Virus record (IMG/VR): IMGVR_UViG_3300032116_000002
Strand: one strand, 5' to 3'
Length of the DNA stretch: 64,000 bases
Source: a virus
Lineage: Duplodnaviria > Caudoviricetes
The translations under genes were made by a program, and so were the position numbers. The stretch's first letter is position 1; each line of letters opens with the position of its first letter. The notes beneath the pieces were generated by a model, which worked only from the letters and a program-made list of their open reading frames with translations, was not told the DNA's origin and made no database searches. Shown here piece after piece: positions 1,324 through 15,936 of the stretch.

Positions 1324-1473
1324 TTAAGATTCTAACACGGTATTGTCTTTATTGTCAACCTTTTCGCTAAAACCATAGAATTCTCTAATCCTTTCAAACT
1401 TTTCAGTTATCAATTTGTTAAGTTGTTCTTCTGATAATATATGGTTGTCAATATTATCTTTTTGATAATTCAT
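1324..1473 (-). CDS. Small 49-aa protein MNYQKDNIDNHILSEEQLNKLITEKFERIREFYGFSEKVDNKDNTVLES
   Basis: Manual translation; GGAG SD followed by an A-run before the ATG at 1473; TAA at 1324-1326. The 3' end overlaps a sigma70 promoter. Confidence 0.6.
   Translation of the reverse strand: MNYQKDNIDNHILSEEQLNKLITEKFERIREFYGFSEKVDNKDNTVLES
1329..1358 (-). promoter_or_regulatory. sigma70-type promoter TTGACA-18-TAGAAT
   Basis: -35 at 1353-1358, -10 at 1329-1334. A 7-bp inverted repeat (1320-1326/1333-1339) overlaps the -10. Confidence 0.7.
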
Positions 1474-1490
1474 TTTTTTCTCCATATAAC

Positions 1491-1524
1491 AAAAAACCCT
1501 GGGACTTTTTCAGTACCAGGGTTT
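1491..1524 (-). terminator. Intrinsic terminator (attenuator-type)
   Basis: AAACCCTGG-TACTGAAAAAGTC-CCAGGGTTT followed by TTTGTT on the minus strand. Confidence 0.85.
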
Positions 1525-1545
1525 AGATAATCTTACTATGAAACT

Positions 1546-1674
1546 TTACTTACCTAAACCCCCCAAGCCCTCAATAATATTGCGATCACTTGTTAAGGCA
1601 TAAAACCCTACAGGTGACCAAACCATTAGTGTTGGCTGATTAAAGGATATATGTTTACAAGTTAAGTTTCTCAT
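1546..1674 (-). CDS. Putative leader peptide, 42 aa (MRNLTCKHISFNQPTLMVWSPVGFYALTSDRNIIEGLGGLGK)
   Basis: ATG at 1674 lies 8 nt after TAAATA (1683-1688). The last codons (1552-1561) are complementary to the 5' arm of the downstream terminator (1519-1528). Confidence 0.6.
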   Translation of the reverse strand: MRNLTCKHISFNQPTLMVWSPVGFYALTSDRNIIEGLGGLGK

Positions 1675-1746
1675 AGTAAATCTATTTAGTCCTGATGATA
1701 ATATTGTACTATTTATCGCATTAAAATGCAAGTTTTCATTTGCCCA

Positions 1747-13209: not shown

Positions 13210-14476
13210 ATGGTGCGAACTCTTTAATTACGCTTTCTAGAGGACCTTGATTTCTTGTTTTATCTAATCTACGATTGAATTCTACAAACTCTGACCATAA
13301 ATTATGTTGATCTCTAGCTTCCAAATAGTTTATATTATCTCTTATCTGTTGTCTAGTTATTCTTTCTAACAAAGGATGCTTTTTAATATTTTCAAATGTC
13401 CACAATCTTTTTTCAACAGATTCTAATCTATCTATAGCTAACTCTTTTAACTCAGTAGGCAATACCTGAGCAGATAAACAATTAGGATAACTGACTCTAT
13501 GACTGTAGAATACAATATTCATTTCATTGATAAAGTAATCTATACATTCTGCTGCTTGTAATATGTTACCTGCTTGTGCAGTGAATGCGCCAACTATTCT
13601 ACTAATGTTAGGTAGTGTTTGCATCTCTTTAATGTTCTTCTCTACCTCAGCAAAGTTGCTATTGCTTCTAATATAGTTGTAAACATCATGTATGCCGTCT
13701 AAGCTAACATTGACTGCGATACTCTTAAAGTGTGGCCAATAATCATGTATCGTTCTATTCTTGCTGATGCCTAATGTTGTTCCGTTAGTAGCATACTTCA
13801 ACTCCATGTTCTTACCATATGGCTTTAGCATATCTAATATCTTATAATGCTGTGGATCCATTAATGGCTCGCCACCTGCAAACTCAACACGACGGAAATG
13901 TGGTATTAGTTTTTCAAAGCTGTTCCACCAATTCTCTGTATCGTCAAATGGGCCTATATATTGTCCGGGCTTGTCAACAAGTTTTGCTACAGTTGGTACA
14001 AGATAATTATTTTCTTTTTCATAGAATGGTTTTACTTCATTCCAATCTTGCCAACTTGTACTATCAAGTGGGTTACACATTCTACACTTAAGATTACATA
14101 GATTATTCAATTTGATTTCCATTGTAGGGAACTCAAATGGCATTGAGTAATCATCATTTAAATTGTCTAGTGCGTTTGGGTATAAATTAATTCTAGCTTC
14201 TGGTATAACACCATTGATGTGTCGTTGTCTTAAACTCTCTACACCTTGATCTTCTAAATCAAAGCAAGGCTTACAAACATCAGGTCTTTCACCATTCAAT
14301 ATTTGTTGTCTCACTTTTTTCATTTCATCGTTGTTCCACGCTGATTCTAAACTTTCGTTCTGAATCCAACCTATGGGTAGACTACGACAACAAATTTTTA
14401 TCGCACCATCTTCTCTAGTAGCAAGCCCTGTAAAGGGATGCATACAAAATGTTTTACTTTGATTGTTCAACTGCAT
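13202..14476 (-). CDS. Radical SAM enzyme with N-terminal twitch-like domain (paralog of 9928-11340)
   Basis: CMHPF..ICC..CKPC; CNLKCRMC; FAGGEP. Start placed at ATG 14476 rather than 14536. Confidence 0.9.
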   Translation of the reverse strand: MQLNNQSKTFCMHPFTGLATREDGAIKICCRSLPIGWIQNESLESAWNNDEMKKVRQQILNGERPDVCKPCFDLEDQGVESLRQRHINGVIPEARINLYPNALDNLNDDYSMPFEFPTMEIKLNNLCNLKCRMCNPLDSTSWQDWNEVKPFYEKENNYLVPTVAKLVDKPGQYIGPFDDTENWWNSFEKLIPHFRRVEFAGGEPLMDPQHYKILDMLKPYGKNMELKYATNGTTLGISKNRTIHDYWPHFKSIAVNVSLDGIHDVYNYIRSNSNFAEVEKNIKEMQTLPNISRIVGAFTAQAGNILQAAECIDYFINEMNIVFYSHRVSYPNCLSAQVLPTELKELAIDRLESVEKRLWTFENIKKHPLLERITRQQIRDNINYLEARDQHNLWSEFVEFNRRLDKTRNQGPLESVIKEFAPYV

Positions 14477-15233
14477 ACTCTCTTTCTTTGCACCAAAAGC
14501 ATTCACCGCATACAGGAACATGTTGACCCCGCACATAGGTTTTGTAGTCTAACTCTGGAAACTCGCCCTCACAACTTCTGGTTAAATTAAATAATCTCAT
14601 TATTCCTAATATTCTATATTGTAACACAACCCATGACTTATCTATGAATCTAAAGGGATGACATGCCAATATATCTAAATGGTTCATTACCATTAATCTA
14701 AAATTTTCTTCATTTGGTTCAACATCTCTTGCTGATAAGCTATAATCATGCAAATTTACTTCTGGGTTTTTAGTTACCGCGTTAAAATATGCGTCAACCT
14801 TATTGTGAAAACTTACATACTCAGCCCATGCTCGTAATTCCATTGTATCACCACTGACTGTTTTACCATATTCATCAGTCAAGTTCTGACCACTAAAGCC
14901 ATGTTCTAATTCAGGTGGTACGAAATTTTCATGTATAGTAAAATGTATTTCTGGGAAATGTTTTTCAAAGTAATCAACAACAATATCTCTTACAGGACCT
15001 TGCCAAGGTCTAGTTTTCCAACATCTTATATTACATACTAAGTGTATGTCAATTTTGGCTTTTGTATCTAGTATTTTCTTGCATAGTAAATAGAGCAATA
15101 ATGCTGAATCAGCACCACCGCTTAATGCTAAACTGATTCTGCGCCATCTAGGGTCAAATGGTATAATTAATCCATTAAAGTTATCTACAGGTCCTGTATA
15201 ATTTTTGTAGAGTTCATTGATTTTTTCTAACAT
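14454..15233 (-). CDS. QueC-like PP-loop ATPase
   Basis: LSGGADS PP-loop, HPF...K, TRSC, CGECFWCKER Zn motif; matches the QueC pattern. Confidence 0.75.
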   Translation of the reverse strand: MLEKINELYKNYTGPVDNFNGLIIPFDPRWRRISLALSGGADSALLLYLLCKKILDTKAKIDIHLVCNIRCWKTRPWQGPVRDIVVDYFEKHFPEIHFTIHENFVPPELEHGFSGQNLTDEYGKTVSGDTMELRAWAEYVSFHNKVDAYFNAVTKNPEVNLHDYSLSARDVEPNEENFRLMVMNHLDILACHPFRFIDKSWVVLQYRILGIMRLFNLTRSCEGEFPELDYKTYVRGQHVPVCGECFWCKEREYAVEQSK

Positions 15234-15240
15234 AACAAGC

Positions 15241-15256
15241 TATTTATAACTAAATA
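15241..15256. promoter_or_regulatory. Back-to-back late promoter motifs (TAAATA on both strands)
   Basis: Minus TAAATA at 15241-15246 (7 nt from ATG 15233) and plus TAAATA at 15251-15256 (5 nt from ATG 15262), within a 28-nt divergent gap. Confidence 0.6.
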
Positions 15257-15261
15257 CCTGT

Positions 15262-15936
15262 ATGATCAATAAAACAGAATGGTATATTCCTAGTGAGTTA
15301 CTAGAAGAAGCGATAGGCACACTCCCAAATATAGACTATAGACTAACACTAAACGAACCTACGGGTAGATTCTTTTATGACAAATGGAAAGTAAAAGAAG
15401 AATTTGTAGGTACAGTTTGGGAAGAAATACTTAACTCATTGCCATACGAAAAGGGTGAGGCAAGATTAATTAAATTAGAACCAGGTACTACATATATGTC
15501 ACATGCTGATTTAGATGATCGTTGGCATATGTCATTAACTGGTAACCAAAGCTATCTCATTAATTTGTCAGATGACATTATGTATAAATTAGATATTGAT
15601 GGTTATTGGCATAGTATGAATGCAGGAAAACTACATGTAGCCGCTAACTTTGGTGAGATACCAAGAGTACAATTAGTTGTAAGACAATTACTAAAACAAC
15701 CTAAATATACATCAGATTTTGTTCAATTAAAAATAATTCCAGCTATAGAAAGATTTGATAGTAGGTACCAATTTGATAAAACAATTAGTCCATGGTTAAA
15801 TCAACATATTAAGACAGGTGATATCAGCGATTTATCAGTAGAGAATGGAATCGTTAGTATGAAACTATTTGATGGTTTTCTGATTAAATTAAATGAAATT
15901 GTGAAACCTTATTTTAAGGTAGTTCTTTCCAACTAG
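15262..15936 (+). CDS. Asp/Asn beta-hydroxylase-like (2OG-Fe(II)) protein with extra C-terminal domain
   Basis: RLIKLEPG...HAD.D.RWH and LHVAAN. Confidence 0.7.
   Translation: MINKTEWYIPSELLEEAIGTLPNIDYRLTLNEPTGRFFYDKWKVKEEFVGTVWEEILNSLPYEKGEARLIKLEPGTTYMSHADLDDRWHMSLTGNQSYLINLSDDIMYKLDIDGYWHSMNAGKLHVAANFGEIPRVQLVVRQLLKQPKYTSDFVQLKIIPAIERFDSRYQFDKTISPWLNQHIKTGDISDLSVENGIVSMKLFDGFLIKLNEIVKPYFKVVLSN

Follow-up and report, generated by a model that had tools for sequence, protein, structure and literature searches.

The 64,000-nt stretch of virus DNA considered here (IMG/VR record IMGVR_UViG_3300032116_000002; Duplodnaviria, Caudoviricetes), referred to below as the window, carries on its minus strand a leader unit in which a promoter near position 1731 is followed by a short open reading frame (ORF) and by an intrinsic terminator that ends at 1491. 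Likely, this unit acts as a ribosome-mediated transcription attenuator, which would respond to the speed of decoding and control the expression of RNA2, a conserved structured RNA, and of tRNA genes; by its means, a lake-water T4-like phage probably transcribes its tRNA block more when ribosomes decode slowly. That the leader senses the whole pool of charged tRNAs in order to control the phage's own tRNA genes is possible and is put forward more tentatively. The evidence consists of observations made directly in this analysis on the anatomy of the unit, its conservation, the covariation of its antiterminator, its start signals and the amino-acid make-up of its leader peptides.

Anatomy, conservation and folds of the leader unit

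The original prediction, made from the letters of the window alone, had described a TAAATA box, a near-leaderless ORF of 42 amino acids (aa) and a 10-bp pairing between the end of this ORF and the 5' arm of a terminator; inspection of the window found each of them in place on the minus strand, and the unit is made of the following parts.

1703 to 1731, minus: sigma70-type promoter P1, TTGCAT-N17-TACAAT; start predicted near 1696, 22 nt 5' of the ATG
1683 to 1689, minus: T4-late-type promoter-like box CTAAATA, 8 nt 5' of the ATG; its transcripts would be near-leaderless
1688 to 1683, minus: TAAATA, present
1546 to 1674, minus: leader ORF, ATG, 42 codons and TAA; its peptide contains all 20 amino acids
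1645 to 1684, minus: region 1 (anti-antiterminator), the 5' arm of a long hairpin, spanning the start codon and codons 1-10
1569 to 1614, minus: core nearly invariant in the window clade, codons 21-35, forming the leader's apical hairpin
1550 to 1561, minus: region 2, the antiterminator 5' strand, GGGTTTAGGTAA, made by the last codons of the ORF
1519 to 1530, minus: region 3, the antiterminator 3' strand, TTATCTAAACCC, overlapping the terminator 5' arm
1491 to 1524, minus: intrinsic terminator T1, with stem, loop and U6 tract

Regarding the pairing, GGGTTTAGGT (1561-1552) is complementary to ATCTAAACCC (1528-1519) with one G-U, and the antiterminator helix grows to 12 bp when 1561-1550 is set against 1530-1519. 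The antiterminator and terminator helices have AAACCC in common, so that the two structures are mutually exclusive, as had been held from the start. T1 has a 9-bp G+C-rich stem and six U, with a folding energy of -16.6 kcal/mol when folded alone, and the antiterminator hairpin alone comes near to it with -13.1 kcal/mol; the 60 nt upstream pair with the terminator 5' flank and arm at -17.7 kcal/mol, against -10.3 ± 2.0 kcal/mol for dinucleotide shuffles, 0.2% of which were as good. At the end of the ORF, UAGGUAAGUAA (1546-1556, minus) places stops in all three frames within 11 nt, inside the antiterminator strand, in most close variants, and in the two close variants with 2-nt deletions the ORF ends on the middle one of these stops. 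A complete ATG ORF of at least 40 codons is found in 2.4% of shuffles of the 207-nt RNA.

The close relatives, here called the window clade, are 7 variants, ~84% identical, from IMG/VR and JGI metagenomes. The leader ORF is open in 7/7, with one 3-nt deletion that is in frame; in simulations on the clade tree, the probability that all seven stay open was 0.05, and the probability that all seven keep all 20 amino acids was 0.001. Synteny with relatives spans ~1760 to 493 in the window, a conserved block (1760-493) headed by the leader unit, and with other relatives it ends ~30 nt 5' of P1. The close variants alone could not decide what the unit is, and DNA searches retrieved little beyond them: the close-clade covariance model (R1) returned near-identical copies only, scans with 15-mers and 23-mers added no diversity, BLASTN of positions 1000-2500 against GenBank phages gave no match, and BLASTN, nhmmer and the close-clade covariance model all missed the leader DNA of the diverged lineages.

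These diverged lineages, ~12 in all, are uncultured aquatic phage contigs with a common layout, namely promoter, ORF of 41-60 codons, antiterminator and terminator, an optional 49-aa gene, RNA2 and a tRNA array; the leader unit and the RNA2 and tRNA array that follow it are on the same strand in every lineage, and the leader ORF ends 13-28 nt before the terminator stem in each. In contig L034, the AhpD protein is 80% identical to that of the window, and the same layout stands 3' of AhpD in unrelated-looking DNA: a consensus promoter and an ORF of 53 codons come first, homologues of the terminator and of the 49-aa gene follow, and after a region resembling RNA2 there are at least 20 tRNA genes. 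A third lineage, L141, was found by a search with the 49-aa family, and a scan with two conserved RNA2 blocks led to 29 viral stretches. As judged from sequence comparison, it is the diverged relatives that decided the probable nature of the unit, where the close ones did not: ORF, position and start signal are kept in ~12 lineages and the antiterminator covaries, in agreement with the attenuator architecture that had been proposed.

As for the antiterminator, non-window transcripts were folded after truncation ahead of the terminator 3' arm; in 12/12 of these sequences (8 lineages) the predicted fold pairs region 3 with the end of the ORF, from -29 to +5 nt. Covariation in homologous leaders, which the original prediction had named as the check to be made, is found in the antiterminator stem: cognate duplexes of region 2 with region 3 have a mean of -17.4 kcal/mol, compared with -12.1 ± 4.0 kcal/mol for non-cognate ones, and 0/20,000 permutations were as good. 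Among the exchanges, U-A is replaced by C-G at two positions, and versions of the distal helix are GGAG/CUCC, GAAG/CUUC, UGA/UCA and AGUUAA/UUAACU; in L003 and L009, the two alternative states are near-equal in energy. The terminator is present in all lineages, with three U only in a few. A resemblance of its loop to lambda boxB was looked for in the close-variant alignment, where the loop is not conserved.

In its minimum free energy fold (-66.4 kcal/mol, z = -5.2), the 207-nt RNA forms the terminator and a single long hairpin that joins the 5' part of the ORF to its 3' end. Homologues of this hairpin, which pairs region 1 with region 2 (helix 1:2), fold alike, with z from -1 to -5.4, and the L034 leader is also strongly structured (z = -5.0). 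In the close clade, 91.8% of the hairpin is paired, with only 2 compensatory pairs, which is not better than shuffles; the support for helix 1:2 within the clade is that of its computed folding energy. The long hairpin, the sigma70-type promoter, the conserved block 1760-493 and the tRNA array after this block had all escaped the original prediction.

Start signals, amino-acid make-up and RNA-level data

Every lineage's leader ORF has a start signal, and this belongs to one of three types. In the first, the ATG lies 6-9 nt past a TATAAT box, giving a predicted leaderless mRNA (L141, L144/151/163, L147, L154); in the second, a [CA]TAAATA box lies 7-9 nt 5' of the ATG (window clade, L143, L150, L158); in the third, GAGA or AGGA stands 6-9 nt 5' of the ATG (L034, L148/155, L149, L152). 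A non-coding RNA would not need such start signals, which therefore count for translation of the leader.

In the window clade two promoters are candidates. P1 matches the consensus at 8/12 positions and was not listed by the promoter scan of the window; alignments show it as a perfect TTGACA-N17-TATAAT in six other close variants. The CTAAATA box is invariant across the 7 variants, the same late-type box with the same spacing is found in L143, L158 and L150, and [AC]TAAATA boxes stand 5' of structural genes in this window. The description of the unit as part of a late transcript is supported by the recurrence of the box and by its likeness to those of structural genes, but it is incomplete, given the sigma70-type promoter 22 nt 5' of the ATG. 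About half of the window genes are without a Shine-Dalgarno (SD)-like 4-mer. A spacer hairpin that would bring an SD near to the start, like that of T4 gene 38, was considered for the leader and rejected, the spacer pairing being too weak as judged by eye. Elsewhere in the window, a perfect T4 late box, TATAAATA (15233-15256), lies 7 nt before the ATG of a 259-aa gene (14454-15233), whose late mRNA may therefore be near-leaderless; the gene at 15262-15936 has a divergent CTAAATA box 5 nt 5' of its ATG.

The leader peptide is fast-evolving, apart from a single mid-peptide Trp that is kept in all lineages, and the reading frame is conserved: for close pairs in other lineages, the ratio of nonsynonymous to synonymous differences (pN/pS) of the leader is 0.34 in frame, compared with 0.52 and 0.94 out of frame. 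Fast change of the peptide with a conserved frame is the pattern expected if the act of translation matters more than its product.

The make-up of the peptides is unusual in all lineages, with 19-20 kinds of amino acids in 41-60 residues; the probability of such diversity is 0.01-0.14 per lineage and combines by Fisher's method to ~1e-5 under either of two null models, with lineages treated as independent, an independence that the combined p-values overstate, the lineages being homologous. No run or cluster of codons for one amino acid occurs in the leader, as already observed in the original prediction, which had left the signal as translation status or an arrest ligand; peptides with nearly every amino acid make decoding speed or tRNA supply the likelier signal.

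A possible relation between leader and tRNA genes was looked at in the loci whose downstream array can be read, the other loci ending too early for comparison. The downstream arrays of L155 and L157 (27 and 23 tRNAs) cover 17 amino acids, without Asp, Glu and Tyr, and tRNA genes for Asp, Glu and Tyr lie upstream of the leader in L155, L148, L151 and L163. In L155, L148 and L151, which belong to two related leader lineages, the codons 5' of region 2 specify exactly the 17 amino acids of the downstream tRNAs, and Glu and Tyr codons occur only within or past the antiterminator strand, where a stall could not cause read-through. The fit of leader amino acids to downstream tRNAs is good, not perfect.

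At the RNA level, metatranscriptome runs of four freshwater studies were used, and in two of these studies one contig each covers the leader (1491-1659 and 1499-1661, both 100% identical); one of the two contigs ends exactly at 1491, the last U of the terminator. The contigs have a depth of ~3 and carry no strand, and they could be read in either direction given a possible antisense promoter, TTGATA-N17-TATAAC (1462-1498, plus strand), which lies on the other side of the terminator and is directed towards the leader. No RNA contig spans T1, which proves nothing; the contigs are a weak hint and show presence in RNA libraries only.

Proposed mechanism, its alternatives and known systems

In the proposed mechanism, transcription would start 22 nt 5' of the AUG, from the sigma70-type promoter, or almost at the AUG, from the late-type CTAAATA box. 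Region 2, made of the last codons of the ORF, would pair with region 3, the 5' flank and 5' arm of the terminator, to form the antiterminator. A ribosome that keeps pace, and is on the end of the ORF as region 3 emerges, would prevent this pairing, so that the terminator would fold and transcription stop at 1491; with a ribosome lagging at a slow codon, region 2 would stay free, the antiterminator would form, and the polymerase would proceed into the 49-aa gene, RNA2 and, family-wide, the tRNA array. With nearly all amino acids represented in the leader, the signal would be how well charged tRNAs are supplied in general. In the more tentative reading, a shortage of any one tRNA would stall the ribosome before the antiterminator strand and turn the phage tRNA array on; such a shortage may come from codon-usage mismatch, host shut-off or tRNA-cutting defence nucleases. 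That the leader is translated, that its translation decides termination, and that tRNA supply is the signal, we infer from the observations above.

The conserved logic across lineages would be read-through when the ribosome lags or is absent. In the window clade, the extra 1:2 hairpin would make untranslated RNA terminate, like in the trp leader and in trp superattenuation; the earlier expectation of read-through without translation holds for the folds of the other lineages, but not for the window clade, where the long hairpin and the terminator should terminate. The targets of read-through are also to be corrected: the 49-aa ORF would be gated as had been suggested, but the family-wide targets would be RNA2 and the tRNA array and not mainly the HNH gene, found among the fetched loci with the leader unit in the window clade only.

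Several observations weigh against this mechanism. Within the clade, the leader ORF has no codon periodicity, its variable columns by codon position 1/2/3 being 10/14/17, with 26/9/106 for the neighbouring AhpD gene and 34/30/130 for the HNH gene, and its pN/pS of 0.64 is not the lowest among the three frames. The core at 1614-1569 varies in 4/46 columns among 7 variants, third positions included, and its synonymous differences (pS) are 0.086, compared with 0.27 in codons 2-20; the mechanism does not account for this near-invariance. In two close variants, the 2-nt deletions shift the last codons, and from P1 the sole SD-like motif is 15 nt from the ATG. In L144, L148 and L034, 11-15 nt separate the end of region 2 from the stop codon, and a ribosome on this codon would only partly cover region 2. 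Agreement with the downstream tRNAs is imperfect for the L144 and L163 leaders, which have one Asp, and the L154 leader has one Phe with no tRNA-Phe found downstream; to this is added the homology of the lineages mentioned above. Lastly, in the window itself a second promoter, P2, lies behind T1, and the HNH gene and a 163-aa ORF stand before the tRNAs, so that the switch would gate the array only partly here.

Among other explanations, the unit might be an ordinary gene for a small protein of 41-60 aa with its own function, marked by a conserved Trp and by a D-R motif; the terminator behind it would be a plain one, and the complementarity would be incidental or would serve to tune terminator strength. 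Such a gene would account for the ORF, start signals and mid-peptide Trp kept in all lineages and for the mild purifying selection in close pairs (pN/pS 0.34); it is unlikely, as a plain gene needs neither an antiterminator that covaries nor the nascent fold predicted in 12/12 non-window sequences, most of the peptide evolves almost freely, and the excess of amino-acid diversity and the match to the tRNA set would be left unexplained. No protein family was found for it among 1.84 billion representatives or in Pfam or PHROGs, and the 42-aa product falls in its own cluster only among 5.8 billion and 1.84 billion sequences. A switch of a different kind, in which a protein, a tRNA or a small molecule bound at the conserved part of the leader would select antiterminator or terminator, with the ORF irrelevant, fits the near-invariance of the core at all codon positions in the window clade, which points to nucleotide constraint, and the strong structure of the whole leader (z = -5.2; in L034 z = -5.0). 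This is a rather improbable reading all the same: between lineages the core sequence is not conserved, whereas the ORF and its start signals are, the unit matches no Rfam family, T-box included, and the exact coincidence of an ATG with the predicted start of the transcript, seen in several lineages, is difficult to account for if the ORF is not translated.

A stand-alone cassette for a small non-coding RNA, with promoter, a structured RNA of ~205 nt, a constitutive terminator and an incidental ORF, was favoured initially, given the missing SD and the missing codon periodicity in the close clade, and it would also suit the z of -5.2 of the long hairpin, the adjoining RNA2, which is a true structured RNA with its own promoter, and the RNA contigs over the leader, one of them ending at the terminator. 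It was dropped when about half of the window genes turned out to be SD-less and the diverged lineages to have conserved start signals, and is now very improbable: an ORF of 41-60 codons with its start signal is kept in ~12 lineages despite nucleotide divergence, with a chance of 2.4% per sequence, the antiterminator covaries across lineages, the next gene relies on read-through, and no complementary target of the leader above chance was found within the window. Rejected as well were a miniature inverted-repeat transposable element, or a transposon end, as source of the inverted repeat, no further copies being present in the window, and a transfer-messenger RNA (tmRNA) or a T-box, there being no tag-like ORF end and no ARAGORN or Rfam match; in Rfam, nothing reached the gathering score in the 64-kb window, and nothing credible appeared at E up to 10 in 1-2300.

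A ribosome-mediated attenuator, the preferred reading, has its closest parallels in the leader peptides of enterobacterial amino-acid operons, namely trpL, hisL, leuL, thrL and pheL, and the multivalent leaders of ilvGMEDA and ilvBNC (PMC3082878, PMC11857589). Like these, the phage unit has a promoter-proximal short ORF and a terminator whose 5' arm has an alternative upstream partner; the position of the ribosome is predicted to pick the fold, with a ribosome reaching the stop favouring termination, and the window clade has the three-helix layout 1:2, 2:3, 3:4. Unlike them, the phage leader is without a regulatory codon run and contains nearly every amino acid once or a few times, its ORF is longer (41-60 codons) and in many versions leaderless, most phage lineages are without the 1:2 helix, so that their untranslated RNA should read through, and the genes behind it are a structured RNA and tRNA genes instead of biosynthetic enzymes. 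Leaderless short ORFs with polycysteine in mycobacteria are cysteine-responsive attenuators that control translation (Canestrari et al., bioRxiv 10.1101/834739). The phage unit resembles them in having a leaderless sensory short ORF as first cistron and a ribosome pause predicted to remodel the downstream RNA, and differs in having no tract and a terminator/antiterminator switch before RNA genes.

With T-box riboswitches (RF00230), the phage unit would have in common that the state of the tRNA pool is coupled to the choice between terminator and antiterminator. T-boxes bind uncharged tRNA directly, without translation, and control aminoacyl-tRNA synthetase and amino-acid genes; the phage leader, in contrast, has a conserved ORF and no T-box match. 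The lambda pR'-6S RNA-tR' region is similar in its strong promoter, its terminated transcript of ~200 nt and a terminator to be passed for downstream phage genes. There, Q is a DNA-binding protein that modifies RNA polymerase, and neither a leader ORF nor alternative RNA pairing is involved, both of which the phage leader unit has. In the PeSL cassettes found in plastic regions of T4-type phage genomes, an early promoter of sigma70 consensus is joined to a terminator stem-loop (Arbiol et al. 2010, PMC2839356); the theme of promoter plus terminator and the synteny break ~30 nt 5' of P1 are alike, but a PeSL is a compact element whose stem-loop is within or next to the promoter, and it has no ORF or alternative pairing.

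In full-text literature searches, no account was found of tRNA genes controlled in this way. The genomes of large phages often contain many tRNA genes, whose control is, to our knowledge, largely unknown. If the proposal is true, the leader would form a feedback loop that keeps virus translation running, a kind of gene control not described for tRNA genes; a test ORF that opens the terminator at slow decoding would explain the timing of phage tRNA production, the tRNA arrays would be tied to host tRNA depletion and to anticodon-nuclease defence, and leader-peptide attenuation would extend from amino-acid operons to RNA genes and viruses. The family also offers natural variants for the study of the mechanism, with leaderless, late-promoter and SD-led starts, with or without the anti-antiterminator, and with differing sets of amino acids.

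Genes behind the terminator and neighbouring features

Behind T1, the window carries the following features.

1324 to 1473, minus: 49-aa gene, with ribosome-binding site (RBS) GGAGA eight nt past T1 and no promoter of its own
1329 to 1358, minus: sigma70-type promoter P2, TTGACA-N18-TAGAAT with TG, in the 3' end of the 49-aa gene
1140 to 1322, minus: RNA2, a conserved structured RNA, between switch and first tRNA in every lineage
486 to 1043, minus: HNH endonuclease gene, 185 aa, Pfam HNH_5, E = 2.7e-15
1 to 489, minus: 163-aa ORF, open at the window edge, with no relative in any fetched locus

The 49-aa gene has an RBS and no promoter, and would therefore depend on read-through of T1. Its frame is the best of three by pN/pS (0.46), its starts are ATG, TTG or GTG, and its indels are in frame. 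Homologues are present in L034 (5995-6162), L141 (1456-1620) and L160, and absent from L144, L148 and L155; the family, of 49-58 aa, has a conserved KLIxEK(F/V)xR motif, finds no match in Pfam or PHROGs, and is an optional passenger between terminator and RNA2.

P2 fits the consensus at 11/12 positions, is invariant in the clade and points into RNA2, and it is the promoter predicted to drive RNA2 in the window clade. RNA2 is G+C-enriched and has clear compensatory changes among relatives, e.g. GCCCC/CGGG to GTCGA/TTCGA in L003; it has no Rfam match. In five leader sequences of two related lineages, RNA2 begins 22 nt past the terminator.

The HNH gene is 88-95% identical among relatives, and the late-type box 25 nt 5' of its start codon (TCTAAATA, 1075-1068) is invariant. 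Of the fetched loci with a leader unit, only those of the window clade have the gene, which thus has the look of an insertion placed ahead of the tRNA array and behind RNA2; in relatives this array begins ~50 nt past the HNH gene, and in the window, the 163-aa ORF occupies the place of the first tRNA gene of the relatives. As predicted from this order of genes, the switch of the window clade would directly gate the 49-aa gene and would only add to transcription further down.

Two minor observations concern RNA genes and the upstream flank. Related contigs (L013, L027, L053, L054, L060, L067, L149, L163) have tmRNA genes with ...ALAA tags, and several of these tmRNA-bearing contigs have a CTA-anticodon tRNA (amber-suppressor-like, 'Pyl' in ARAGORN) near the AhpD gene. 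Directly upstream of the leader unit, a 62-aa lipoprotein-like ORF and an 84-aa ORF (1747-2198, minus) are found only here and in the near-identical contig L081.

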